A DNA stretch of 62,267 nt, filler included. It is 5 parts of 5 records of this genome, joined end to end, with 100 filler letters (N's around TTAATTAATTAA, not from the genome) between each part and the next. Parts side by side here need not be neighbours in the genome. Positions count along the whole stretch, not along the records: positions 24,310 to 40,816 come from SRR31156797_803; 4 more parts are not named here. The stretch is one strand, 5' to 3'. Below the pieces are notes generated by a model. That model did not search any database. It had not been told where the DNA came from and saw only the letters and a list, made by a program, of their open reading frames with translations. Below, piece after piece: positions 11,923 to 37,959 of the stretch. The position numbers and the translations under genes were made by a program. Position 1 is the first letter of the stretch. The number at the start of each line of letters is the position of its first letter.

Positions 11923-12022
11923 NNNNNNNNNNNNNNNNNNNNNNNNNNNNNNNNNNNNNNNNNNNNTTAATTAATTAANNNNNNNNNNNNNNNNNNNNNN
12001 NNNNNNNNNNNNNNNNNNNNNN
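11923..12022. other. Artificial contig spacer
   Basis: N44-TTAATTAATTAA-N44, a linker with stops in all six frames. Confidence 0.98.
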
Positions 12023-24310: not shown

Positions 24311-24355
24311 TGGTGCCGAGACCCAGAGTTGAACTGGGGACACCGGGATTTTCAG
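24311..24355 (-). mobile_element. 3' half of tRNA-Phe(GAA), probable att-site duplication of an integrated island
   Basis: Minus strand CTGAAAA-TCCCG-GTGTC-CCCAG-TTCAACT-CTGGG-TCTCGGC-ACCA. tRNA-like sequence stops exactly at the 5' edge of the anticodon loop, with no D arm or 5' acceptor strand. Confidence 0.8.
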
Positions 24356-24395: not shown

Positions 24396-24959
24396 CTACC
24401 CATACATCATGATAATGGCATCAGCCACATCCTTGATGGGCTTGTTTTTTTTCATGCTGATTTCCTGAAGGCGGCGATAGGCGCGGGGTTCGCTGAGTCC
24501 CTCATTTTCCATCATCAGCCCCTTGGCCCGCTCCACCAGTTTTCGGGTTTCCAACTGCGACTTCAGGGTGGCGACCCGTTCCGTAAGGGCGGATTTTTCC
24601 ATGAATAGGCTGACCGCCAGTTCAACGGCAGACGATACATCGCCCACCCGAAAAGGCTTGGTGATGTAGGCCATGACGCCGGCGTCCTTGGCCTTTTCAA
24701 TCAGATGGCGCTCGGAAAAGGCCGTGAGGATCACCACCGGGTGCTGTCCGGATACTTTTCGGGCCACCTGGATGCCGTCCATTTCGGGCATCTTGATGTC
24801 CAGTATCGCCACATCGGGTGTTTTCTGTTGGATCAGTTTCAATGCCTCCATTCCGTTTCTTGCTTCGCCTACAACCCGATATCCCAGGTCCTCCAGTACC
24901 TCTTTGAGGTCGCGTCTGAGCAGGGGTTCGTCATCGGCAATCAGAATGCGTAAACTCAT
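24396..24959 (-). CDS. ANTAR-domain response regulator (PdtaR/EutV-like RNA antiterminator)
   Basis: REC (IADDE, ILDIKMP, LTA, KP), coiled coil and ANTAR signature LETRKLVERAKGLMM...AY..LQEISM. Confidence 0.95.
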   Translation of the reverse strand: MSLRILIADDEPLLRRDLKEVLEDLGYRVVGEARNGMEALKLIQQKTPDVAILDIKMPEMDGIQVARKVSGQHPVVILTAFSERHLIEKAKDAGVMAYITKPFRVGDVSSAVELAVSLFMEKSALTERVATLKSQLETRKLVERAKGLMMENEGLSEPRAYRRLQEISMKKNKPIKDVADAIIMMYG

Positions 24960-27805
24960 ATATTGCTCCTTGGTTGTATGGGATGGTAACCCTGGGGGAG
25001 GGGGAACCTCAATTCAGCGGTGGCGCCGTGGTCTGATCGAATTTGAAAAGCGCCTTTCAACTCTTCGCCGGCCAGCGTTTGAACAATGGTCAACCCCAGG
25101 TTGCCATGCTGTTCCGGATCAAAGTCTTCCGGGAATCCCGGGCCATCGTCCGCCACAGTGACCGTGATCATATTTTTCATCTGTCGTATCTTTACGGAGA
25201 TCCGTCCGCCATCTTCTTCCTTAATGCCATGCTCCAAACCATTTTGAATAAGCTCATTGACCACCAGGGCCACGGCGGTCGCCTCCCGGGAAGGGATCAT
25301 CACCGGATGTTCCGACGCATCCAGGGTAATCCATGGTCTGTTCATCCGATCCGGTTCCGCTGCTTTGCTGATGCTTCCCACCAGACGCCCCAGATCCACC
25401 ATGCCGATTTGGCCCTCGGAAAGGGTTTCGTGGACCAGGGCGATGCTCATAATTCTGGAAATGCTGTCTTTCAAGGCCTGCTCCGGTGAAACGCGATCCA
25501 GCCTGCGAAGCTGCATTCGGAGGAGCGCCGCAATATTTTGAAGATTGTTTTTGACCCGATGATGGATTTCCCGATAGAAGGTTGAGTGTTTGCTCAAGGA
25601 TCGATTTTCGATAAACATGGCCACCTGGGAAGAAATGCCCTCGAGAAACGCTATGCTCTCGGATAGGTGGTCGGGATAAAAATGAAACCCTTTTTCCTCC
25701 GCGGCGTAGAGATTCAAGACTGCCCGCAGCTCGTCTTTATAGATGACCGGAACCGTAACAAAACTGTAGGAAAAGCCGGAACTCAGATCGACGGGACAAT
25801 TTTGATCGGATCCCTCGGAAAAAAACAGGGGCTTCGAGTGTTCGATCTGCCATTTGGTCACTTTTTCATCGTTTTCAATTTCCTTTTCGCCGATTTCAAC
25901 ACCCTCCTCCCCGTCCACGGCTTCCTTAATCCAGAGGCGGTGTGTTCGATCCACCAGCCAGAGGGTCGCAAAGGAGACCTCAAGAATGCGCCTCATATGC
26001 CTGACGATATTCTGGGATTGAACGGCGGGGTTAATCTGCCGGCGGAATTCATAACCCAACTGGTTCAGTATTTCCAACTGGTTCATTTTCATGTCCAGGC
26101 TGCCGTCCAACTCGATCCTGTGAAGGCCGCTGGCCGTCAGGTTGCCGATGATTTCAGCCAGCACCCGATCTTCCTCTTCCGGCGCGTTTTCACTTGTTTT
26201 CCTTTTGAAGGCAAGAACGCCAAAATGTTTGCCGTGACTGTCCAGGTTGACCAAATGGCATTCTCCCTTCAATTCATCCACGCCGATGCGTTGCGGAAAT
26301 GCCGCCGGTTCCAAAGCGCTTGAAAGGACATATGGAGATGAATCGTCCATTTCCATGGGCATATAAAAAGCGCCATGGGCCCAGGGAAATAGAGCGGAGA
26401 GTTCCGTGGCCAAGGCCTTCAACAGGCTGCCGGCATCGGTTCCATTCTGAATGATCCGGTTGACCCTGCTGATGGATCTGATCTGGGAGACCTTTCTGTC
26501 CAGCTTTGAGGAAAATTCCCGGTAAACCCGTTTGCTCTGATGCATGAGGGAAGCCACGGGATTCAGTTCATCGGAAAAGACCAGCGTAGACACGGACTGA
26601 TTGTTGTAAACCGGAAGGCCATCGTCAAAGATGCCCATCTCTCCATAGGTATAAAAGCCGCACAGGGGCAAATTCACATTGCTCAGCACCCGCGTGATTT
26701 CTTCCTGTTCCTTCTGCTCCGTCAGTCGCAGCGCACATGAAAACATGACTGCCATTGAGGGTTTGCCTAACCCCCCGTACCGGACGGCCTTTTCATAGGC
26801 TGACACGCCTGCTTTTACGATCTCGCCCCGGTCGGCCTGCATGAGGGTCATCACCCGGTCATTTCCCACGAGGTGGGGAAACTGGATGGAACCGTCCTCC
26901 AGAATCCGCTCCGGCACCAGCAGAAGGGAATTCCCGTAAACATCCATGGACCCGAAGGGATGTTCGTTCAGGGGCGAAGGCGCCGCCGGCAGGTTGTCCC
27001 TGATTCGACCCATGGGAATTTCAAGCATTCCCGCATAGACATCAGCCGCCGGGCGGTTGTCAAACTCATGGACCATATGCCCCGAGGCCTTTGTCACCAG
27101 TGCCCGTTTGGTGGTGGGAACAAAACCATGGGACATGCCCAGCCCGAAAAGGACTTCCGTTTCAAGAAATGCCAGGGCAATGGCGTCCCTCGACACTTGG
27201 CCGTTGATCATCTGGTAGTTCGGGCCGTATCGAAAATAGTCGCTGGAACTGCCGCCGAATATGGGGATCCGGTTGGAAGAACTCTTTCGAAGGAAGGTAT
27301 GGATGTCATGGGTAAGAGAATGGCTGTTTTTCGTGGCGCCCGGCGCGAAGACCATGAGGAGCACCGGTGAAACCCCCAGCGTTCCCGAAGCCGACACATT
27401 GAGCATCTGGTGCTCGGGAAATCCGGCATTGAAATATTCGGATATGTGGGCATTGGCCAGTGCGTCATGAACAGCCCTTTGATAATCTTGGGAAACCCCT
27501 TTTCCCATACCCAATTTCACATTGATGTGGGGAGAACAAAGGAGGGTCACCACCACGCTGTTTCTCAGGAACCCATCCGCGATTTCCCCCGCGGTGCTGG
27601 CACCGATAAGCGGGCAATCCTCCAGAACATCCACCAGCCCCCGATTGACTTCAAAAACATCCAGTTCAGCGGAAACGAAGGCCAACGCCAGGCTGGGATG
27701 GAATTTACCCCTTTGAGAGAGGGCTCTGGTTGCGGCCTCCCGTCCCATCTCCAAGGGCTTTCCGGAAGTGCTTTTCCCCACATGCGCTTCAAAGTAAACG
27801 CCCAT
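24956..27805 (-). CDS. Cytoplasmic FIST/FIST_C-GAF sensor histidine kinase (HisKA_2, PdtaS/EutW-like)
   Basis: FIST motifs GASTAGEI, FGGSS, FSCALR and GFYTYGE; GAF-like middle; EIHHRVKNNLQ, NELIQN, DDGPG and NLGL. RBS AAGGGG precedes the ATG at 27805 (the ORF extends to 27874). The stop overlaps the ANTAR start. Confidence 0.9.
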   Translation of the reverse strand: MGVYFEAHVGKSTSGKPLEMGREAATRALSQRGKFHPSLALAFVSAELDVFEVNRGLVDVLEDCPLIGASTAGEIADGFLRNSVVVTLLCSPHINVKLGMGKGVSQDYQRAVHDALANAHISEYFNAGFPEHQMLNVSASGTLGVSPVLLMVFAPGATKNSHSLTHDIHTFLRKSSSNRIPIFGGSSSDYFRYGPNYQMINGQVSRDAIALAFLETEVLFGLGMSHGFVPTTKRALVTKASGHMVHEFDNRPAADVYAGMLEIPMGRIRDNLPAAPSPLNEHPFGSMDVYGNSLLLVPERILEDGSIQFPHLVGNDRVMTLMQADRGEIVKAGVSAYEKAVRYGGLGKPSMAVMFSCALRLTEQKEQEEITRVLSNVNLPLCGFYTYGEMGIFDDGLPVYNNQSVSTLVFSDELNPVASLMHQSKRVYREFSSKLDRKVSQIRSISRVNRIIQNGTDAGSLLKALATELSALFPWAHGAFYMPMEMDDSSPYVLSSALEPAAFPQRIGVDELKGECHLVNLDSHGKHFGVLAFKRKTSENAPEEEDRVLAEIIGNLTASGLHRIELDGSLDMKMNQLEILNQLGYEFRRQINPAVQSQNIVRHMRRILEVSFATLWLVDRTHRLWIKEAVDGEEGVEIGEKEIENDEKVTKWQIEHSKPLFFSEGSDQNCPVDLSSGFSYSFVTVPVIYKDELRAVLNLYAAEEKGFHFYPDHLSESIAFLEGISSQVAMFIENRSLSKHSTFYREIHHRVKNNLQNIAALLRMQLRRLDRVSPEQALKDSISRIMSIALVHETLSEGQIGMVDLGRLVGSISKAAEPDRMNRPWITLDASEHPVMIPSREATAVALVVNELIQNGLEHGIKEEDGGRISVKIRQMKNMITVTVADDGPGFPEDFDPEQHGNLGLTIVQTLAGEELKGAFQIRSDHGATAELRFPLPQGYHPIQPRSNI

Positions 27806-28014
27806 TTTCCCCCTTTGATCGCTGACAGATAACGAAACGATTTTTCCAAAACCGGACATGTGCGTAACTTTCACATTTTTTAAATATTACATAGCACACG
27901 TGGTCCAAGTCAAACATTTGATGGATTTCTTCGTAAAAGAGCGCATTGACAAACAGAATTCACTTTGCATCGACGCGTTTTTGGCAATGTTTTTATGGAG
28001 AGTATCGGAGATGG

Positions 28015-29868
28015 TTACATAAAATTCTCCCTCTTAACCGGAAAGCTGATGGCTTCGATAAACCGTTTCTGAAATGTATCGGAGGCGGCCAAATCCACAT
28101 ACTCGACTTTTTCGGCTATTCCATGGGCCAGATTGCGTACCCGACCTGAAATCAGAGCCATTTTTGATCCCTGCAATGCCGCGTTGCCCATGGTCTCAAT
28201 TATATGGACGGGAACCTCGGGCAGAATGCCGGTTGACAGGGCGCTCTGTGGATTGACATGGGTTCCGAATGATCCCGAAATAAGGATGCGATCGATTTGC
28301 GGCGCCTTCACCGCCGCTTTTTCCATCAAAACGGAGATGCCCGCCCGAACCGCCGCTTTGGCCACTTGGAATTCGCCCACATCCTTTTGCGTCAGGACAA
28401 TATCTTCATTATCCATCAAGCGTTTTGTGATGCAAATCTCCCAACCGCCATCTCTTGAAGGCCTGACGCCGGGCTTGGAAACATTGCCAACAAACAGACC
28501 CTTTTTGTCGATGATGCCGGCATTAAGCATCTTTGCAATGCAATCGATAAGGCCGGACCCGCAAATTCCCTTCGGGCTGGTTCCGCCGATGGTTTTAAAA
28601 ACGATCCCGCCCGTCACCGGATCCATTGTCACATGGTCAATGGCCCCCTTTACCGCTTTCATGCCATGCTTTATGCCACCCCCTTCAAAAGCAGGTCCCG
28701 ATGCACAGGAACAGGCGAAGATCCTGCCTTGATTCACAAGAACGATTTCCGTATTGGTTCCGATGTCCAGCAACAAACAAATCCCTTTGGCATCATGCAG
28801 TTCCGTGGATAAAATATTGGCCAGACAGTCCGATCCCACAAATCCGGAAATCAACGGTAAAAAGTGAATATTCCCTTCACCGTTCATATCCAGGTTCAGG
28901 TCTTTCCCCTTTCGATCCAAAGCGCTTGTTACGGCCGGAACATAAGGCGCCAGGGATAGATATTCGGGGAAGATCCCCAACAGAATGTGATGCATGGCGG
29001 TATTTCCAACCACCGTGGCCTCATAAATATGACGGGGGTCAATGCCGTGTTTCAGGCAGATTCGGGAAATCAATCGGTTGATGGTGTCAACCGCTTCTTT
29101 CTGAAGCAACGCGCCTGTTGCTTCACCTGTTGAAGCAAACTCCATGCGGACCAGGACATCATCGCCATGGGCTGATTGGGCATTGATGCCGCCTGCCGAA
29201 TCAATTGTTTGGCCATTTTTCAGATTAACCAGGCATACGGCTATTTTGGTGGTGCCGACATCAACGGCAACCCCGAAGCACCCCTCTACGCCATGGCCTT
29301 CCTCAACGTCAATGATTTCCCTGTCGTTCCAAACCGTCACGGTAACCTGGCCCATGGGATTTCTCAGGGTTTCAGGCAGCCGTAAAAGCGGCTTCTGCGC
29401 CATCAAAACGGGATATGAACCTTCACGGTTAATTAACGGCAGAAGGTATTCAAGATCAGCCTTATGCTGTTTTATATTCGATTTCAAGAGGTCAAGATGG
29501 AACTGTTTGACAAAGGGCGAGGACTCGACTTTCGTCTCAATACCCTTGAGTTCCATACGCATGTCCCCGACCATGCTCTCTTGGGGAATCGTTACCGTCA
29601 GATTGCTTCGGACGTCAGTCTGACAGGCCAGGCGAACGCCTTTTTCCAGAAGTTCCATGGAAATGTGGCTGCTTTCGATCTCACCGGGTTTATGTTGTAC
29701 CAGGCTGTTTTGGGACAGGATAATCTTGCATTTTCCGCATTGACCCCGACCGCCGCAAGGGGAATAGAGGTTGGCGCCCGCATCTCTGATCACCTCATCC
29801 AGCCTGCTCTCTATTTGAACGCTCCTTTTTAAGCCCAAGGGTTGAATCGATACATGATATGATTTCAT
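28015..29868 (-). CDS. Reductive activator of corrinoid enzymes (RACE/RACo, ASKHA family, N-terminal 2Fe-2S)
   Basis: CGGRGQCGKC...RLAC, DVGTT, GFVGSD, DIGTNTE, GPAFEG, GICGSG and GNAA; start uncertain (29868 or 29907). Confidence 0.92.
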   Translation of the reverse strand: MKSYHVSIQPLGLKRSVQIESRLDEVIRDAGANLYSPCGGRGQCGKCKIILSQNSLVQHKPGEIESSHISMELLEKGVRLACQTDVRSNLTVTIPQESMVGDMRMELKGIETKVESSPFVKQFHLDLLKSNIKQHKADLEYLLPLINREGSYPVLMAQKPLLRLPETLRNPMGQVTVTVWNDREIIDVEEGHGVEGCFGVAVDVGTTKIAVCLVNLKNGQTIDSAGGINAQSAHGDDVLVRMEFASTGEATGALLQKEAVDTINRLISRICLKHGIDPRHIYEATVVGNTAMHHILLGIFPEYLSLAPYVPAVTSALDRKGKDLNLDMNGEGNIHFLPLISGFVGSDCLANILSTELHDAKGICLLLDIGTNTEIVLVNQGRIFACSCASGPAFEGGGIKHGMKAVKGAIDHVTMDPVTGGIVFKTIGGTSPKGICGSGLIDCIAKMLNAGIIDKKGLFVGNVSKPGVRPSRDGGWEICITKRLMDNEDIVLTQKDVGEFQVAKAAVRAGISVLMEKAAVKAPQIDRILISGSFGTHVNPQSALSTGILPEVPVHIIETMGNAALQGSKMALISGRVRNLAHGIAEKVEYVDLAASDTFQKRFIEAISFPVKRENFM

Positions 29869-29949
29869 AAAGGAGAATGCCTGTATTTTATGGCGCCCAT
29901 CCCTCAAAAAATTAAGGGATGGAGCTTCTGAGCCCGGAATCGTTTACGT

Positions 29950-31089
29950 CTATATTGAAATAGGGTATTTCCCGAATTTCTCAACGGATTTTATCATGGC
30001 CTGCATATTCTCCATGGATGCATCCAAGGGCACGGTGCAGCCGGGCCCCAGGACAAACCGCCCTCCCGGACCGCATTTCCGGATCAATTCCACGCATGCT
30101 TCTTCCACGTCCGAAGGCGAGCCGTGCAACAACACATCCACAGGATGAAGATTCCCCATCACCATGGCGGGAAACAGTTGTTCCTTTGCCCTGGCCAGGG
30201 CATCCGCGCCCCCATATTCCGGCATGAAAAAGCTGTGGCAATGGTCCAGATAGGTTTTCCAGACTTCTATCCCGGGCTCAAACGGCCCGACTGAACAGGC
30301 ATGCAGGGTGGTATCCCGCTCGAACTCGTCCCAGATCCGCTTAAAAAGCGTCGGCGGATGATCCCCTTCCACCCACACGGGTCTCTTGACGAATTCCTCA
30401 GAGCCGACCTTATGCGCCAGTTCCGTGTGCGAGATAAAGCCCGCGGCGCCCACCTTGATCTGGGCCTTGGCAAATTCATAGGATGTTTGGATAATGACCT
30501 CTTCCACGGTTTTCCAGAATTCAACGTCCTTTTCCATGGCCATGAACATCTGGGTCCATCCCATGAGCGACCCTCCGATATGAACGGCTGCATCGCACAT
30601 GCCTCCTACCGGCCACTCCCCTTGCAGTTCTTTATTGGTCAACTCAATGGCCTTAATGATCACGGGCATCCTTCCGTGCCGATGGGGATCCGCCGGTTTC
30701 AGTTTTCTGGCTTCTTTCAGATTCTTCACCAACGGATCGCCGTAGCCGGGTTCTTTAACCGGATCTCCCTTATAAAGTCGGTGCGGGTGGGTGGGAATGA
30801 AATCGCGCCATTTCAGGGAAGGATAGGTTAAGCCATTGGCTTCCGCAATGGCTTCATAGGTCACGGAAACATCCGGCAGTGCGGCAACCGAATCAACCCC
30901 CATCTCCCGCGCAGCCCATATCATGCATTTCGCCAGTCGTTCCGGATCGTATGAATAATCCAGAAAAGAATCCTTTCCGTACAATTGGGCCCAGGCCCAG
31001 TCGATGAACACCCCAAACACGGGAACTCTGTCGGTTTCCTGACACATGGCCGTGGCCATCATCCGCTCCGTTGCCGTCATCTTCGCCAT
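29950..31089 (-). CDS. URO-D/MtaA/CmuA-fold corrinoid methyltransferase (MT1-type)
   Basis: ERM..DRVPV, GRMP, Zn ligands LHAC and PGC, GNLHP, ENMQAM; adjacent to the corrinoid protein. Confidence 0.85.
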   Translation of the reverse strand: MAKMTATERMMATAMCQETDRVPVFGVFIDWAWAQLYGKDSFLDYSYDPERLAKCMIWAAREMGVDSVAALPDVSVTYEAIAEANGLTYPSLKWRDFIPTHPHRLYKGDPVKEPGYGDPLVKNLKEARKLKPADPHRHGRMPVIIKAIELTNKELQGEWPVGGMCDAAVHIGGSLMGWTQMFMAMEKDVEFWKTVEEVIIQTSYEFAKAQIKVGAAGFISHTELAHKVGSEEFVKRPVWVEGDHPPTLFKRIWDEFERDTTLHACSVGPFEPGIEVWKTYLDHCHSFFMPEYGGADALARAKEQLFPAMVMGNLHPVDVLLHGSPSDVEEACVELIRKCGPGGRFVLGPGCTVPLDASMENMQAMIKSVEKFGKYPISI

Positions 31090-31091
31090 TG

Positions 31092-31754
31092 CTATCGCCC
31101 TCCCATGTATTCGGTTGCCAGTTTCACGGCATCCGATGCATGCCGCCCGTAATCCACATTCATTTGATCCGCATATTTATCCGTGATAACCGATCCACCC
31201 AAAATGACCTTGACTTTGTCCCGAAGTTCGGCTTCTTCCATAAAATCCAGAATTTCTTCAATTTTTTTAAAACCCGATGACTGATAGGATGAAATGCCCA
31301 GAATATCCGCACCGGTTTCCTGAACCTTGTGAACAAAGTGGATCGACGGAACATCCCGCCCCAGATAATCCACCTTGAATCCGGCCGCGATGAGCGCCAA
31401 AGCCGCCATTTTCCCTCCCAGGTCATGGGTGTCCCCGGCCGGAGTTCCCAACACTACCGTGCCCAAAGCATCTTCATCCTTCATTTCCATGTGGGGTTCC
31501 AGAATTTCCAAAGCCCTTCGGACCCCTTCCATTGACATGAGAAAGACGGGATGCAACCATACCTTGTCCCCTCCGAAGAGCTTGGTTTCAAGTTCCTTTA
31601 TGCCGTCGCTCAATGCATCCCTCATGAGCCGTTCGGGCGGCAGCCCCGCTTCCAATGCCTGTTCTGCAATATCCGGCGCGCCATCGAAATCCGCGTCCAA
31701 CACCGCATTTTTCAGTTTGGCGACCCAAAGATCCTTCTCTTTTTCAGCAACCAT
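31092..31754 (-). CDS. Corrinoid (B12-binding) protein, MtaC/OdmA-like
   Basis: Four-helix cap, then GDTHDLG (DxHxxG), LGRDVP, GISS and LGG. Confidence 0.92.
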   Translation of the reverse strand: MVAEKEKDLWVAKLKNAVLDADFDGAPDIAEQALEAGLPPERLMRDALSDGIKELETKLFGGDKVWLHPVFLMSMEGVRRALEILEPHMEMKDEDALGTVVLGTPAGDTHDLGGKMAALALIAAGFKVDYLGRDVPSIHFVHKVQETGADILGISSYQSSGFKKIEEILDFMEEAELRDKVKVILGGSVITDKYADQMNVDYGRHASDAVKLATEYMGGR

Positions 31755-31818
31755 TCTTTCTCCTCCTCTTGCATGGAATCATATGCCCTCCTCACATTGA
31801 CAAAGGGAATCCATAAAC

Positions 31819-31886
31819 AAAAAAAGCTGCCTCGCCCTGCGTCGGGCAAAGGCAGCCTCATTACCGCATTATCATCAAAATTATGC
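31819..31886 (-). promoter_or_regulatory. ANTAR-type attenuator upstream of the corrinoid genes (clear P2 and terminator, weak P1)
   Basis: P2 GCGGT-AATGAG-GCTGC (31867-31852) overlaps the terminator GCTGCCTTTGCCC-GACGCA-GGGCGAGGCAGC-T7. An upstream GATGAT loop has a weak stem. Confidence 0.75.
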
Positions 31887-32007
31887 TTGAACTTCGCCGG
31901 CCGGAAGGTTTACATGGCGTTTTCAAGAAGCCGGCATTCAATAAATCTTTCACTTTCCTCAAAAACAATTTGATAAATAAATGATGGTTCAGCTCTCTGC
32001 CCGCCGA

Positions 32008-33228
32008 TTATCTCTTATCCCAAGGCTTCATTGCCCGTGTCTTCCATCCCCCTTCAAGCACGGGGAAGGATAGCTCCTGGTAACCGTCGTGCCACTGATG
32101 GGCCGTGCACAGATGAATGGCAACGTTGTCTTTGCCGTATTTCACATCCCCCATGACAGTCCCTTTGAAGTCATTTTCTAAAACAGCCTTTTTAATGGCG
32201 GCGGAGTCCAATGTGCCTGCCTTTTCAATGGCCTCCCAGAGGATCTGGCACAATGCGTAATAGAGCCCTATGGAAACCGAATGTTTGTCAAAATCTTTAT
32301 GGTATCGCGTCCCCAGTTCTTTAGCACCGGGATATGGAAAATCTTCCGACCAGAACCCGTCCATCAGAATTGCTTCGGAATCCGGTCCCAGCGCGTTGTA
32401 AAACTCATGGGCCCAGGTTCCCTTGACGCCGTAGATATACTTCACGTTAAGATCTGCCTCTTTCAGCTGACGAACAAAGGTAATACAGTCCCCGTCCGCG
32501 GCAAAGATCAGGATGCCGTCCACCTTCTTGCTCCTGAGTTTGAGGATCTGGGATGAATAGTCCTTTGCGCCGACGGCCAACGGTTCATCCACCACAAATT
32601 TATAGCCATATTTCTTTGCCATCTCCTTGAATGCCCCGCCGAAGGCCCTGCCGTCGATGGTATCCTCCATGAGCATGGCAAGCCTCTTGGGCCTGTCTTT
32701 CTTATCCATGCTGTTCAGAATTTCATAAGGGTTTGAGGCGGCTTGCATGATGTCGAAGAAGTAGAGGGTCGACCACTTGAATTTCTGCTGGGCCCAGGGC
32801 GGGACGAGACAGGTGGTTGCATGATAATACTTTTTGTATTTGTCGGCGGTCATGCAGGTGGGGATCACATGGTTGGTGGTAAACCCGGACAACAGGACGT
32901 CGGCCCTGTCGACCTTTATGAGTTTTTCCGTTGCCGCCACCGCCTTTCCCGGATCACTCTCGGCATCTGCAATGATCAGTTCAACGGGAAGCTTTTTCCC
33001 ATATTCCTTCACATAAATGCCGCCATTTTTGTTGATATCGGCCACCGCCTGTTCATAAGCCCACTTCTGTTCAAGGGCGGCCCCTGCCAGAATCCCGGTC
33101 AGTGGAAGGGGAGTGCCGATCTTGATGGTCTTCTTTTCCTCAGCCGATACCGGCACAGACAAAAGGGTGAGAATCGCCAAAACCAAAAAAACCATTCCAA
33201 ACTTCATAAAACCCGATTCTTTCTTCAT
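32008..33228 (-). CDS. HAAT (LivK-like) ABC substrate-binding protein
   Basis: Signal peptide, IKIGTPLPLTG, INKNGGI and DAESDP. Confidence 0.9.
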   Translation of the reverse strand: MKKESGFMKFGMVFLVLAILTLLSVPVSAEEKKTIKIGTPLPLTGILAGAALEQKWAYEQAVADINKNGGIYVKEYGKKLPVELIIADAESDPGKAVAATEKLIKVDRADVLLSGFTTNHVIPTCMTADKYKKYYHATTCLVPPWAQQKFKWSTLYFFDIMQAASNPYEILNSMDKKDRPKRLAMLMEDTIDGRAFGGAFKEMAKKYGYKFVVDEPLAVGAKDYSSQILKLRSKKVDGILIFAADGDCITFVRQLKEADLNVKYIYGVKGTWAHEFYNALGPDSEAILMDGFWSEDFPYPGAKELGTRYHKDFDKHSVSIGLYYALCQILWEAIEKAGTLDSAAIKKAVLENDFKGTVMGDVKYGKDNVAIHLCTAHQWHDGYQELSFPVLEGGWKTRAMKPWDKR

Positions 33229-33255
33229 GTCACATCTCCTTCCTTCTTGAAAAAA

Positions 33256-34215
33256 TTAATAAGTTGGATTCGGCCTCCCTTTTCCGAAAAGCCTTTTCAA
33301 TTTGATCCTGATCAATCCTTCCGGAAGAAACAGGATGGATAAGATAATGAGGATTCCCGAGATGATGGGGTGGATATGCGGAAGCCAAATTTTCACCAAT
33401 TCAAAAACGCCCGTCAGCGCAAATGCACCGATGATTGGACCGGCTAAGGTTCCGGCGCCCCCCAAGACACACATGAGGATCGGATAGAGGGTCCAGCTAA
33501 GGCCAAAAAAGTTTTGGGGATGAATATGAAAAAGATAGTAGGCTTGAACACTGCCGCAAAGGCCGCTTAAGAATGCATAAACCGCAAAAGAGAACAATTT
33601 ATATCTGAGAACGCCGATTCCGTTGGCAAGCGCCGCGGTTTCATCCTCCCGGATGGCAATCAACGCCAATCCGATGCGGGATCTCATGATGAAAAAGACG
33701 GCCGCCGTGGCAAATACCGCCAGGAACAGGGCCACGTAATAATAGGGGAGCATGGCGCTGTAGGAGCTTGAGGGCAGATATTTTCCCATGGACCCCCCCG
33801 TAAAAGCGCCCCCCTGAATGAAGATGAGGCGCAGGACCTCCCCCAACCCCAGGGTGCCCAGGGAAAAATAGTCGCCCCGCAGTTTCCGAAGGAGCGGTAT
33901 GCCCACCAAAACCGCCAGGAATGCCGGAATCAGACCGCTCAGGATCATGGCCAGCGGATTGAAATAGCCTAAGTTGGCGCTCTCCCACAAAATGGCTGTC
34001 ACGTAGGCGCCCAGACCGAAAAAGGCATGCTGACCCAGGGAAACCTGACCGGTATACCCGCCAATAATGTTAAACCCCTGACCCATGGCGAGATAGGTGA
34101 ACGCCATGAAGAGATAGTAGACAAAATAGTTGTTTTCAGCGTCCAGTATCAGCGGAATCATCGCCAAAAAGGCAACAGCTGCGAAACATGAAATGGTTCC
34201 TTTTTGATGGCTCAT
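33256..34215 (-). CDS. HAAT ABC permease (LivM-like)
   Basis: GYTGQVSLGQHAFFGLGAY, LRGDYF, AIREDE and LGGAGT..GP. Confidence 0.9.
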   Translation of the reverse strand: MSHQKGTISCFAAVAFLAMIPLILDAENNYFVYYLFMAFTYLAMGQGFNIIGGYTGQVSLGQHAFFGLGAYVTAILWESANLGYFNPLAMILSGLIPAFLAVLVGIPLLRKLRGDYFSLGTLGLGEVLRLIFIQGGAFTGGSMGKYLPSSSYSAMLPYYYVALFLAVFATAAVFFIMRSRIGLALIAIREDETAALANGIGVLRYKLFSFAVYAFLSGLCGSVQAYYLFHIHPQNFFGLSWTLYPILMCVLGGAGTLAGPIIGAFALTGVFELVKIWLPHIHPIISGILIILSILFLPEGLIRIKLKRLFGKGRPNPTY

Positions 34216-35120
34216 GGTCTTTCCGCACTCATGGAGGTTCTGGTGAAAAGGCCTTCCGGTTTAAAAAGGAGCACCATCATGAAAGCCCCGTAGGAGAGCA
34301 CATCGGCCCATCCACCGGTCCAGATGAAGGAACCCACGCTTTCGATGACGCCCAGGATGATGCCGCCCAAAAGCGCACCGAATATGCTGCCCATTCCTCC
34401 TAGGGCCAGTGCAATCATCGCCTTGAGGCTGAAAATAAACCCGAAATAAGGGTCAAAGGAATAGGTGGTGGCAGTGGCCACACCGGCCAGACCGGCCAGG
34501 CCGATCCCCATGGAAAAAGTGAGCGTGTTCACCTTGTGGGGGGTGATGCCCACCAGGGTCGCGGACTCCACGTTCTCCGACGCCGCCCGGACCGCCTTTC
34601 CCAGCATGGTCTTTTTCAGGAAAAGCGTCACCGCAATGGTTGCCAAAAGCGCCATGATAAAAGCCATGAGACGGCTGAAGGAGAAATGGATCTCCAGGAT
34701 AGAAAAGCCAAAACCCGTGTAGTCCGTGCGAATGGCCCTGCTGTTGGGTGTCCACAGGACGGACATGAGGTTTTCCAGAAATGCCATCAAACCGAATGAA
34801 AGCAACAGGGAGGCGGCCTTCCCGGTTTCTCCCCTGCCCGACACTTTCTTGAAGAGCAGACGATAAACGCCCGCGCCGAACAACATGGCACAGGGGACCA
34901 CAACCAGGATGGAAAGATAGGGATTAACACCCAATAGACTGAATAGCCAGAAAGCGCCGTAGGCCCCCAGCACAATCATCACCCCCTGGGCAATGAAAAT
35001 GATCTGCATGGTTCCGAAAATCAGGCTGAGTCCGAGGGCCGCGATCCCGTACATGGTCCCGAAAAGAATACCGTTCACCAGAACCTGGATCAAAATATCG
35101 ATGGAATCAAAACCGAACAT
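34212..35120 (-). CDS. HAAT ABC permease (LivH-like)
   Basis: GLSLIFG, GKAVRAASEN and LGGMGS motifs. Confidence 0.9.
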   Translation of the reverse strand: MFGFDSIDILIQVLVNGILFGTMYGIAALGLSLIFGTMQIIFIAQGVMIVLGAYGAFWLFSLLGVNPYLSILVVVPCAMLFGAGVYRLLFKKVSGRGETGKAASLLLSFGLMAFLENLMSVLWTPNSRAIRTDYTGFGFSILEIHFSFSRLMAFIMALLATIAVTLFLKKTMLGKAVRAASENVESATLVGITPHKVNTLTFSMGIGLAGLAGVATATTYSFDPYFGFIFSLKAMIALALGGMGSIFGALLGGIILGVIESVGSFIWTGGWADVLSYGAFMMVLLFKPEGLFTRTSMSAERP

Positions 35121-35126
35121 ATCAGG

Positions 35127-35849
35127 CTACCTCAATGACCCCATATAGGCCTTCTGGATTTCAGGGTTGGCCAACAGTTCGTCCCCTTCTCCCTTAAGGG
35201 TGATCCGGCCCGTTTTAAGGACAAGGCCGTGTTGGGCGATCTTCAGTGCCCGATGGATATTCTGCTCCACCAGAAGAAGGGTCATTTTCTGCCGGTTCAA
35301 GGTCTCTATGATTTCAAACACGGTCTTCACAATGAGCGGCGCCAGCCCGAGGGAAGGTTCATCCAGCATCAAAAGCTTCGGTTTAGACATGAGGGCCCTT
35401 CCGATGGCCACCATTTGCTGTTCCCCGCCGCTCATCTTTCCGGTAATCTGATGCTTTCTTTTCTTCACGATGGGAAAAATTTCCATGACCCACTCCAGGG
35501 TCTCCATCAACCGGGGTCTGGCCCGCTTTGTGAAAGCCCCCAGTTCAAGGTTCTCCAAAACGGTGAGCCTTGTAAAAAGGCCCCGCCCTTCGGGAACGAG
35601 GGAAATACCGCGCTCCACCATTGTTTCGGCGCCTTTGCCATCCACGCGGGAACCTGAAAACACCACCTCCCCGGAGGTGGGTTTCACCAGCCCGGAAACG
35701 GTTCTGAGGATGGTCGATTTTCCCGCGCCGTTGGACCCGATGATGGCGTAAACTTCCCCTTTTTGAACATGGAAACCGATATCCCACAGTGCCTGGGCGT
35801 CACCGTACGACACGTTGAGGTCCTTTACCCTAAGCAGGGGATTCGCCAA
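35127..35849 (-). CDS. HAAT ABC ATP-binding protein (LivF-like)
   Basis: GSNGAGKST, VPEGR, MSGGEQQM and DEPSLGLAP; likely TTG start at 35849 after GGAGG. Confidence 0.9.
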   Translation of the reverse strand: MANPLLRVKDLNVSYGDAQALWDIGFHVQKGEVYAIIGSNGAGKSTILRTVSGLVKPTSGEVVFSGSRVDGKGAETMVERGISLVPEGRGLFTRLTVLENLELGAFTKRARPRLMETLEWVMEIFPIVKKRKHQITGKMSGGEQQMVAIGRALMSKPKLLMLDEPSLGLAPLIVKTVFEIIETLNRQKMTLLLVEQNIHRALKIAQHGLVLKTGRITLKGEGDELLANPEIQKAYMGSLR

Positions 35850-36579
35850 GATACGCCTCCACCACCTTTGGATCCGCGGCAATATCCGCCGTTTTGCCTT
35901 GCGCCAGCATCTTGCCGTAATCCAACACGACAATTCGGTCGCAGATGCTGAATACCGCATCAATTTTATGTTCGACCCACAGGATGGAAACACCGTGGGT
36001 TTCACGGATATCCACAATGAGATCCATAATGGTATGGGTTTCAGTGGGATTGAGCCCGGCCAGGGGTTCATCCAAAAGCGCCAGACCCGGTTGGGAGGCA
36101 AGGGCCCGGGCAATCTCCACAAGCCTTCGGTTTGAAATGGTGAGCTGGGAAACGACTTTGTCCTTCAGATCCAGCAGGTTCAGCATCTCCAGATAGTGAA
36201 GGGCATCCTGTCCTGCCCTCTTTTTGCTTCTGCCATTGCCATAAATGGCGCCCACAACAACGTTTTCCAAAACCGTCATGGAAGGAAAGATCCTGACCAG
36301 TTGAAAGGTCCTGGCAATACCGCGCCTGCAGATACGATCGGGGCTGAGACCCACCAGATCTTTCCCTTTGTACTGGACGGAACCGGCATCAGGCCGATAG
36401 ATCCCGGTGATCACGTTGAAAAGAGTGGTCTTGCCGGCGCCATTGGGCCCAATGAGCCCCATGATCTCTTTTTCATGGATATCAAAAGAGACATCTCTTA
36501 AAACCGTCAATCCCCCAAAATTCTTTGAAAGTCGATCGATTTGAAACAACATGCCGGAATTCCCTGTGGTGTCAGTCAA
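35830..36579 (-). CDS. HAAT ABC ATP-binding protein (LivG-like)
   Basis: KNFGGL, GPNGAGKTT, ARTFQ, DEPLAGL and VEAYLG. Confidence 0.9.
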   Translation of the reverse strand: MTDTTGNSGMLFQIDRLSKNFGGLTVLRDVSFDIHEKEIMGLIGPNGAGKTTLFNVITGIYRPDAGSVQYKGKDLVGLSPDRICRRGIARTFQLVRIFPSMTVLENVVVGAIYGNGRSKKRAGQDALHYLEMLNLLDLKDKVVSQLTISNRRLVEIARALASQPGLALLDEPLAGLNPTETHTIMDLIVDIRETHGVSILWVEHKIDAVFSICDRIVVLDYGKMLAQGKTADIAADPKVVEAYLGESPA

Positions 36580-36608: not shown

Positions 36609-37397
36609 TTATACATGCCCGTGCATATTGCACAAAACATGTTGATTCATGCCGCCGTCGCAGGGGATGTTGGCGCCTCTGATCCACCCGCTCTCTTCGC
36701 TTAATAGAAAGGCGATCACCGGCGCAATATCTTCCGGCCGCCCCGGACGATCCATGACTTTCGCGTCTTCTTCTGCGCGGGCGCCCAAGGTTTCAAGAAA
36801 ATCCGGAAGTATGGGCGTCTCCACGGGGCCGGGGCTGACGGCATTGATCCGGATTCCCCGGTCGCGCCAGGTCCAGCGGTTCATCATGGTCCAGACAATA
36901 AGCGCTTCTTTTGAAAAGAAATAGGATCGGCCACCCTTTTGCGTCACGCCCGTTTCTTCGCAGAGCGCCTCAACCCCATGGAAATCCCTTAACGCCAGCA
37001 TTGCCTTGATCTGATCGCCGGTCTCAGGCCAACCGAGTCCCGCAAGGGAAGCCACGTTAACAATGGACGCATTGTCGTTGAGCTTGTCTATCATCAATTC
37101 CGTAAAGTGTCTGAGCCCCAGAAAATTGACCTTCAAGACCAGTACCCGATCTTTTGTGGGCGGGAGGCCCGCGATGTTGCACAGGCCGTCAATTCCGACC
37201 GGAATCGCATGGACAGCCGCCTCGATGGAGGCCGGATTGGACAGATCGGCTTTTATGAATTGATCCACATTTTCTTCCGGTTCATTTAAATCAACACCGA
37301 TGACCGTTGCACCCTTTGCCTTCAGCACCTTTGCCGTCTCGGCCCCTATGCCCGAGGCCGCTCCCGTCACTACGATTTTTTTATTTTCCAGGGACAT
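36609..37397 (-). CDS. calA: SDR dehydrogenase, coniferyl-alcohol dehydrogenase (CalA)/3alpha-HSD-like
   Basis: NKKIVVTGAASGIGAETA, IDGLCNIAG, YFFSK-EALIVW and PGPVETPIL closely resemble recalled CalA; RBS AAGGAGG. Confidence 0.7.
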   Translation of the reverse strand: MSLENKKIVVTGAASGIGAETAKVLKAKGATVIGVDLNEPEENVDQFIKADLSNPASIEAAVHAIPVGIDGLCNIAGLPPTKDRVLVLKVNFLGLRHFTELMIDKLNDNASIVNVASLAGLGWPETGDQIKAMLALRDFHGVEALCEETGVTQKGGRSYFFSKEALIVWTMMNRWTWRDRGIRINAVSPGPVETPILPDFLETLGARAEEDAKVMDRPGRPEDIAPVIAFLLSEESGWIRGANIPCDGGMNQHVLCNMHGHV

Positions 37398-37414
37398 GCT
37401 TTACCTCCTTAAAT

Positions 37415-37484
37415 AAAAAAACCCCCTTTGCCCTTCTGCAGGCAAAGGAGGCGCCGTTACCTCCTGAAAGCATCATCGCTTCCA
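37415..37484 (-). promoter_or_regulatory. ANTAR dual-hairpin attenuator 2 (gene-proximal)
   Basis: P1 GGAAGC-GATGAT-GCTTTC; P2 GGAGGT-AACGGC-GCCTCC; terminator GCCTCCTTTGCC-TGCAGAAG-GGCAAAGGGGGT-T6 shares the 3' arm of P2. Confidence 0.85.
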
Positions 37485-37493
37485 GCATTGCAC

Positions 37494-37566
37494 AAAAAAA
37501 AGCCTCTCCACCTAAAAGCAGGTGAAAGAGGCGTCATTACCTCTGAAAATGCCTCATTACATTTTC
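37494..37566 (-). promoter_or_regulatory. ANTAR dual-hairpin attenuator 1 (promoter-proximal)
   Basis: P1 GAAAATGT-AATGAG-GCATTTTC; P2 AGAGGT-AATGAC-GCCTCT; terminator GCCTCTTTCACCT-GCTTTT-AGGTGGAGAGGC-T8. Both loops are AxxGxx. Confidence 0.9.
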
Positions 37567-37584
37567 AAATCAGTATTGAAACTC

Positions 37585-37613
37585 AGGGTAACTTTCGATT
37601 TTATCCGTGTCAA
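37585..37613 (-). promoter_or_regulatory. Putative sigma70 promoter of the SDR-ABC-corrinoid operon
   Basis: TTGACA (37613-37608), 17-nt spacer, TACCCT (37590-37585), about 20 nt upstream of the first P1 hairpin. Confidence 0.6.
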
Positions 37614-37883
37614 GAAAAAAATCACAAGGCAATCACAAACAATAGTGCACAACAAATCATACAAATCACTGTCCGCCGCCCGCATTTGGGTACCGTCCCG
37701 GATGAGGTTGGATGTTCGGCCAAAGGCCATCATTATAAGGGAAAACAAAACCCATGTGATTAGAGATCCAAGGGGGTGACCACGGATCAAATCAGAGAAC
37801 CAACTGGTATAAATGCACAGAAACTTTTTTCTTGACATTGTTTAAAAAACAATATCTGATGCTTTCTAATTAAAAATCAGATT

Positions 37884-37959
37884 AGAGGTAACGGTGCCTC
37901 TTTTGCGTGACGTTGCGCATGTTTTGTAATGCAATGTCGTGTAAAAGGGGTTTTTTTTT
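37884..37959 (+). promoter_or_regulatory. ANTAR-type hairpin and overlapping long terminator upstream of the divergent ABC operon
   Basis: AGAGGT-AACGGT-GCCTCT. The 3' arm starts a 22-bp G:U-rich stem (37896-37951) followed by a T run. TTGACA lies at 37832. Confidence 0.78.

Follow-up and report, generated by a model that had tools for sequence, protein, structure and literature searches.

The locus analysed here raises the question whether the dimer of an ANTAR antiterminator has to meet hairpin P1 before hairpin P2, or whether two spaced loops can be met in either order. The preliminary description of this DNA had proposed two complete ANTAR attenuators in series in one 5' leader, and in our study the leader is likewise probably best explained by two serial attenuators, both read by the REC-ANTAR protein encoded at 24959-24396 (probability about 0.85, judged from the sequence). 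Since the window, which is the whole stretch of 62,267 nucleotides that was analysed, joins five contigs (N spacers at 11923, 24210, 40817 and 46283; GC content 52-62%), genes on the two sides of a spacer are not neighbours. The tandem leader is located on the 16.5-kb contig at 24310-40816, and the regulon of the host is known from this contig alone. As a kinase, a regulator and four targets of three layouts are found together on this one contig, the locus is suited to the question of loop order. The relatives named in the searches belong to Desulfatiglandales, Desulfobacterales and Syntrophorhabdaceae, and from their lineages the host is probably a member of Desulfobacterota.

The features are collected in Table 1, where L1, L2 and L3 stand for the loops of P1, P2 and the terminator tip. 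The positions and loops which had been claimed for the hairpins and terminators of both units were confirmed on the minus strand, along with the U:G closure of both P2 loops. Unit 2 has the described order and loops, but its T-run is T7 and not T6. The letters of the described promoter are also present, but its -10 box is only 3/6 and the site is absent from the promoter-scan list; the two candidates that the scan did list also precede unit 1. Of the first 25 family units, 19 have TTGACA or TTGACC at a distance of 41-78 nt ahead of L2.

Table 1. Predicted features of the contig carrying the tandem leader (window coordinates).
Feature	Position	Strand	Basis or remark
Putative sigma-70 promoter, TTGACA (37613-37608)-17-TACCCT (37590-37585)	37585..37613	-	Sequence; weak -10
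Unit 1 P1 hairpin, hexaloop AATGAG (37558-37553; A1, G4)	37545..37566	-	Sequence, folding
Unit 1 P2 antiterminator hairpin, hexaloop AATGAC (37538-37533), U:G closure	37527..37544	-	20 nt after L1
Unit 1 intrinsic terminator (37532-37502) and T8 (37501-37494)	37494..37532	-	Folding, z -4.9
Unit 2 P1 hairpin, hexaloop GATGAT (37477-37472; G1, G4)	37464..37485	-	Sequence, folding
Unit 2 P2 antiterminator hairpin, hexaloop AACGGC (37458-37453), U:G closure	37447..37464	-	19 nt after L1
Unit 2 intrinsic terminator (37452-37422) and T7 (37421-37415)	37415..37452	-	Folding, z -3.6
RBS and first gene, SDR of coniferyl-alcohol dehydrogenase subfamily	36609..37410	-	NF009092, 322.8 bits (cut-off 242)
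Liv-type ABC transporter: 2 ATPases, 2 permeases, binding protein	32008..36579	-	Pfam
Unit 4, internal: P2 AATGAG (31862-31857), terminator, T7	31818..31891	-	Model R1, 36.9 bits
Corrinoid protein, URO-D/MtaA-CmuA-type methyltransferase, RACo/AcsV-type activator	28015..31754	-	NCBIfam matches below curated cut-offs
Promoter-like site TTGACT-18-TAATAT before kinase and regulator	27884..27913	-	Weak; 2 sites vs 0.7 expected
FIST-FIST_C-GAF-HisKA_2-HATPase sensor kinase	24956..27874	-	Pfam
REC-ANTAR response regulator, likely cognate antiterminator	24396..24959	-	PF00072 and PF03861 (E 1.5e-22)
Unit 3, divergent: TTGACA 37832, P2 AACGGT (37890-37895), T9 37951-37959	37832..37959	+	Model R1, 35.8-39.9 bits

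The stems are 8-11 and 6 bp long in unit 1 and 8 and 6-7 bp long in unit 2, against a required length of at least 3 bp with loops of 6 nt. P1 and P2 had been described as abutting with a linker of 0-1 nt, which holds with fully extended stems only; with stems of 3 bp the linker is 7-8 nt, and the criteria for it are 5-12 nt (E. faecalis) and 2-25 nt (actinobacterial curation). From loop to loop, P1 and P2 are 20 nt (unit 1) and 19 nt (unit 2) apart; a hand count from Fig. S2 of PMC3369931 gives 24 nt for eutP and 19 nt for hits 016, 024 and 032. The L2 loops of the two units are 80 nt apart, with only 8 nt between T8 and the P1 of unit 2. G4 is present in all four P1 and P2 loops, as described, but A1 in three of the four, the P1 loop of unit 2 having G1. 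In the E. faecalis study (PMC3369931), A1 mutants lost induction, and a 3-nt linker crippled it at eutP. Since G1 loops are seen in the published hits 024, 029 and 037 (PMC3369931, Fig. S2) and no specific contact to A1 is seen in the EutV structure (PMC8934654), only the strict consensus membership of unit 2 is lowered; a U:G-closed P2 hairpin is also drawn in Fig. S2. The terminator tip loop of unit 1 is GCTTTT, without G4, and that of unit 2 is a third G4 hexaloop, GCAGAA (37439-37434), closed by U:G and placed 19 nt after L2. Rfam gave no match over the leader at the gathering threshold or at E<=5. The RBS lies at 37410 and the ATG at 37397 (minus strand), and in the full-leader fold the U-tract of unit 2 can pair with the RBS region (37397-37421, minus strand), which is possibly a weak translational layer.

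Folding analysis agreed with the claim that the two structures of each unit are mutually exclusive, as the 3' arm of P2 is the 5' arm of the terminator in both units. The forced P1+P2 fold lies +5.3 (unit 1) and +5.4 kcal/mol (unit 2) from the terminator fold. In transcript prefixes the probability of P2 was about 0.98 at its first folding (0.58 in one intermediate prefix of unit 2) and fell to 0.0 in both units once the 3' arm of the terminator was complete, and P1 remained folded in the terminated RNA. A hexaloop scanner run over the 62-kb window gave three hits, namely the two units and a weak intragenic 3-bp hit; 997 of 1000 intergenic shuffles had none, 2 had one and 1 had two, and the mean over 30 contig shuffles was 0.2 hits. 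Among 12 units, several kinds of base pair were seen at each paired position of P1, the null being 2.8 +/- 1.6, and the terminator had double changes in 9 of 15 pairs among the 13 training units of the RNA model. Since the core of P2 is nearly invariant, it has little compensatory change, found at positions 4 and 6 only. Part of the conservation of the units is built in, because they were found by similarity.

The regulator aligns with EutV (6WSH, E 2.4e-34) and with Rv1626/PdtaR (1S8N, E 2.6e-53). It has a REC domain with the Asp, a coiled coil, an ANTAR domain and a partner kinase, as is required of a REC-ANTAR regulator. Its Asp54 is retained and aligns with the phospho-acceptor of EutV, and of the seven EutV RNA-contact residues named in PMC8934654, six are kept by alignment reading (R139, K140, K146, E157, Y161, M169), Lys147 being replaced by Arg144. 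The gene cluster ends with the HisKA_2 kinase followed by this regulator, and the two genes adjoin in 13 of 13 orthologue loci inspected. Orthologues of the regulator were found in 8 of 201 genomes of the order of G001 and in 7 of 401 in the phylum sample.

Model R1 was built on the 13 training units, two from the window and 11 from seven genomes. With cut-offs of E<=1e-7 for R1 and E<=1e-40 for the regulator protein, both searches marked identical genomes in two sets, 13 of the 96 in one and 5 of the 70 in the other; training had used none of these, and 4 of the 18 had been chosen earlier for carrying the regulator. All five regulator genomes picked from the phylum sample had R1 matches of 52-71 bits. 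Among 151 genomes of the order of G182, R1 exceeded 40 bits in six regulator genomes only, five of which were training sources; matches at E<=0.01 (90 of the 151 genomes) were not counted, and those of 30-37 bits were inspected, the low scores suggesting that these are mostly generic terminators. G4 is present in 47 of 47 L2 loops and the three loop-proximal pairs of P2 in 46-47 of 47. From the exact genome-by-genome co-occurrence, the regulator is almost surely cognate to the family units, and the predicted ANTAR antitermination at both units, as originally proposed, is well supported by this co-occurrence and by the clustered regulator and kinase. The families of G182 and G452 gave 3 of 101 and 1 of 21, with no new genomes. 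A metagenome search with the regulator gave 80 loci (best identity 31-63%, most <=50%) and no convincing family unit among them. An initial loose pattern, with matches in 51 of 201 genomes and many hits in the controls, was dropped.

Some mid-scoring R1 matches (32-37 bits) were observed in genomes without the regulator (L189, L190, L191 and L174). They share AA.GAA-GCCCCC or a similar start before the terminator, and may be degenerate sites or serve another ANTAR protein as targets. In genome G032, the regulator orthologue (L029:3780-4339) has an in-frame TGA or a frameshift near residue 155, and its target unit is the best-scoring one; the closing pair of P2 is broken in that unit.

Units 3 and 4 are both outside the training set of R1. 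The R1 match of unit 3 (37858-37959) precedes a second Liv-type binding protein (38094), and the unit has a second G4 hexaloop hairpin, GACGTT (37909-37914), which is also unfolded by the long terminator. At 37890-37959 (+) and at L233:7847-7946 the terminators are long and interrupted, and their formation opens the L3 hairpin as well as the P2 arm. The G182 counterpart precedes a TIGR02486 reductive dehalogenase family protein (170.1 bits, cut-off 160.35). Unit 4 has a G4 tip loop, GACGCA (31843-31838), no canonical P1, and no promoter-like site was found near it. The loops are therefore arranged as L1+L2 in unit 1, L1+L2+L3 in unit 2 and L2+L3 in units 3 and 4. The terminator overlaps the second hairpin of the pair in units 1 and 2, which is also the arrangement in PMC3369931, PMC3369936 and PMC7496416, and the first hairpin in units 3 and 4 and in most relatives.

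The frequency of this arrangement was followed in 49 family units (13 training and 36 held out; the partial match G648:C194 was left out). A canonical upstream P1 was found in 11 of the 49 and in 3 of the 36 held-out units, and a G4 hexaloop at the terminator tip in 35 of the 49 and 31 of the 36. L3 lies exactly 19 nt after L2 in 34 of these 35, the P1-P2 spacing being 18-21 nt, and is closed by Y:G (U:G or C:G) in 33 of 35. In 95 control terminators from the same loci, 12 hexaloops were seen, three of them with G4. When the search pattern left L3 unspecified, it had 36 distinct matches, spread over 15 genomes; all 22 that fold as strong terminators had a G4 L3, and the remaining 14, a number near the count of the reversed pattern (18), mostly lack a terminator fold. 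G4 is kept in 20 different L3 sequences, in which every other position varies. At least two G4 loops are present in 44 of the 49 units. A G4 L3 accompanies 4 of 11 units with P1 vs 31 of 38 without it (p 0.007); after clustering at 70% identity this anticorrelation has p 0.045 and is confounded with lineage. With the same clustering, the weighted L3 loops have G4 in 68% and G1 in 64%. Relatedness inflates the L3 counts, and the conservation of L3 could be due to descent. Both layout types sort largely by lineage, yet coexist beside one regulator here.

These observations point, in our judgement with fair likelihood, to a permuted class of ANTAR antiterminators in which the second hexaloop is the apex of the terminator, 19 nt downstream, and P1 and L3 are interchangeable; the tandem leader would then combine a canonical unit with a three-loop hybrid. 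If this is true, the terminator destroys the first hairpin of the pair, an earlier-transcribed loading hairpin is not needed, the successive-binding model has to be revised, and searches built on the P1-P2-terminator order would miss or misread such sites. That model, in which P1 is bound first and then P2, is proposed in PMC8934654. No terminator-tip ANTAR loop was found in the open-access literature searched. Two canonical ANTAR sites were also observed in the phylum beside other ANTAR genes (L232:11669 and L003:1862, both +); their P1 stands 30-34 nt upstream and their terminators end in tetraloops, and the former precedes an ORF whose N-terminus is ammonium-transporter-like by eye.

A less probable alternative is that the P2 hexaloop alone is enough for ANTAR control, in which case P1 and the tip loop would be relics or stability features such as a sheared G1-A6 pair. 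No element other than P2 is invariant, isolated hexaloops are bound by EutV (PMC8934654), five of the 49 units have no second G4 loop (neither P1 nor L3), and L3 mostly has G1 and not the canonical A1. In three first units the -35 box stands only 41-42 nt before L2, so that there is no room for P1. Against it, G4 is retained while the other L3 positions vary, the L3 spacing equals that of P1 and P2, and G4 tends to be lost from L3 where P1 is present. G4 in L3 had no effect on predicted stability, which is a weak test, and the binding of NasR to a single hairpin is about 12-fold weaker than to the pair (PMC7496416). The single-hexaloop explanation was dropped as the main reading after L3 had been observed.

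With two loops read in each unit, the proposed sequence of events is as follows. By default each terminator would form by taking the 3' arm of P2, as is seen in folding, and transcription would stop near 37494 or 37415. By analogy with EutV, the FIST-GAF kinase would phosphorylate Asp54, the regulator would dimerise, and the phosphorylated regulator would bind the loops and allow read-through. The regulator would dock on the G4 hexaloop that is present in both folds and would hold P2, and therefore the terminator could not be completed. The docking loop, 19-20 nt from L2 in each unit, would be that of P1 in unit 1, P1 or L3 in unit 2 and L3 only in units 3 and 4, L3 being, like P1, a putative second docking site present in both folds. 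Two gates would thus precede the dehydrogenase and the transporter, and a third one, unit 4, would stand before the corrinoid gene, so that the methyltransferase genes lie behind three gates. The serial gates would lower the leak and steepen the induction, as the preliminary description had also inferred; by arithmetic, two single gates of 4-fold would reasonably give 16-fold at the cost of maximal output. Read-through may also add positive feedback on the regulator.

It is improbable that only one of the two units is a working switch and that the other leaks, is constitutive or is skipped by transcription starting downstream of it. The missing A1 in the P1 of unit 2, the weak -10 box and the 23 of 27 regulator genomes without a tandem leader among the matches found would agree with it. 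However, both units have an intact P2, strong terminators (Table 1) and equal switching energy, all three promoter candidates are upstream of unit 1, T8 and the second P1 are only 8 nt apart, and the G1 loop occurs in the published alignment, hit 037 having the same loop (PMC3369931). Of similarly low probability is the suggestion that the short RNA ending at terminator 1 is a decoy which titrates the regulator, the tandem setting a threshold in place of multiplied leak suppression. P1 is folded in the terminated RNA, single loops bind EutV and EutX is said to titrate the regulator as a decoy (PMC8934654), whereas the simpler in-cis model explains the anatomy; the decoy is compatible with serial attenuation and does not exclude it. 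Finally, plain terminators or a ribosome-coupled attenuator with a chance resemblance to ANTAR sites are highly improbable, since the SD-like word (GGAGGT/GAGGT by eye, in the 5' arm of P2) stands 1 nt from the ATG contained in L2 of unit 1, 16 of 47 L2 loops have no ATG, and motif and regulator coincide without exception over 166 genomes. A leader-peptide reading was rejected as well.

Two units in one leader were found in 4 of the 27 regulator genomes with units. In G379, G202 and G626 they are 130-135 nt apart in one orthologous aldehyde-dehydrogenase leader, and in G070 they are 257 nt apart; no ORF of more than 4 codons was found between the units in these four genomes. Five pairs of terminator-overlapping hits, each pair on one strand, 81-251 nt apart and with the same downstream genes, are listed in Table S2 of PMC3369931, and they are not discussed as tandems in its sections 7 and 10. 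Tandem ANTAR leaders, ANTAR with FIST and ANTAR in Desulfobacterota were not found discussed in the open-access literature searched. The tandem layout is thus recurrent and not exceptional, with a tabulated precedent. The shared letters of the two units had been taken as a sign of duplication, which was not borne out: the units are 63% identical against a family mean of 61% (300 pairs), with ranks 9 and 12 of 24, and each is most similar to a single unit of G182 (71% and 74%). The shared letters are the family consensus and therefore hold no trace of recent duplication, so that a recent tandem duplication was rejected; an old one is possible. In the tandem leaders of G202, G379 and G626 (L228:1046-1258, L227:15220-15427 and L244), a conserved segment was observed 3' of the first U-tract. 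It can pair back with the P2 region of the first unit (-13.6 to -16.7 kcal/mol), and a hairpin can take up the U-tract; this is possibly a lock formed after read-through which frees the protein.

The gene content of the contig looks like a regulon for the anaerobic catabolism of aromatic alcohols, aldehydes and methyl ethers, and not for nitrogen. Corrinoid systems of this kind demethylate aryl methyl ethers. The structures nearest to the SDR are 3-alpha-hydroxysteroid dehydrogenases; no solved structure was found for the methyltransferase, and the structure matches of the binding protein named no ligand. The first genes behind the family units encode mainly aldehyde dehydrogenases, SDRs, aldehyde oxidoreductases and transporters, the commonest being an aldehyde dehydrogenase whose closest relatives are salicylaldehyde, vanillin and 4-hydroxybenzaldehyde dehydrogenases. 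The corrinoid system and the aldehyde dehydrogenases together suggest lignin-derived aromatics. A conserved protein of 103-119 aa, without a Pfam match at 1e-12, was also observed as the first gene behind units in three genomes (L028:3968-4324, L027:8890-9246, L233:15625-15933). The genome search with the methyltransferase gave two loci, neither syntenic with the leader, and the SDR search in five regulator genomes gave one match, not directly behind a unit. A leader of this type ahead of this SDR gene was absent from the other genomes searched.

Directly after the regulator, at the contig end, the 3' part of a tRNA-Phe was observed at 24311-24355 (minus strand). It agrees in 44 of 45 bases with the tRNA-Phe gene of G182, has no 5' half upstream and gave no Rfam match; an Rfam tRNA match lies on another contig (15129-15211, +). 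The fragment looks like an att-site duplication, and therefore the operon may sit on an integrated island, a reading in line with the patchy distribution of the regulator.

By itself, the tandem arrangement adds modestly to what is known. Relative to the literature found, the new element is the putative second binding loop on the terminator tip, the stacking of units being already known. The locus further suggests that, in anaerobic Desulfobacterota, the catabolism of aromatic carbon is under ANTAR termination control via a FIST-domain kinase, and the shifted unit, of about 50 nt, suggests compact parts for protein-gated transcription switches.

Among the known systems, EutV/EutW with the eutP, eutG, eutS and eutA leaders of E. 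faecalis (PMC3369931; PMC8934654) likewise has a REC-ANTAR protein with a kinase, G4 hexaloops, a P2 that overlaps the 5' arm of the terminator and several gates along the operon. In contrast to it, the present leader has two gates, a linker of 0-1 nt where 5-12 nt are unpaired there, U:G and not C:G closure and G1 in one loop; in its family the second loop is often on the terminator tip, the sensor is of FIST-GAF type and the function is apparently carbon and not nitrogen catabolism. In Table S2 of PMC3369931, the Pelotomaculum thermopropionicum pair 651231/651312 has the same 81-nt spacing as L1 to L1 here, and the other pairs belong to Desulfotomaculum carboxydivorans (813893/813992) and D. 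acetoxidans (34402/34596, 1043787/1043969 and 1656692/1656943). Unlike the present leader, these pairs are predictions in Bacillota, mostly before nitrogen genes, and their placement in one leader is taken from the table. GnfK/GnfR of Geobacter sulfurreducens (PMC2995071), from the same broad lineage, is also a system with a REC-ANTAR antiterminator, with a conserved P2-like word overlapping leader terminators and with binding shown, but it serves nitrogen fixation genes with RpoN promoters and has a sensor-less kinase. The closest solved structure to the regulator is Rv1626/PdtaR of Mycobacterium tuberculosis (PDB 1S8N), and for mycobacterial ANTAR targets translational repression, not termination, is reported (bioRxiv 10.1101/660928). 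Tandem riboswitches and T-boxes for the same ligand (PMC12452182) are also serial independent attenuators with an expected pseudo-cooperative response; the term 'ANTAR' is absent from that paper, and unlike in those systems, the ligand here would be a phosphorylated protein.
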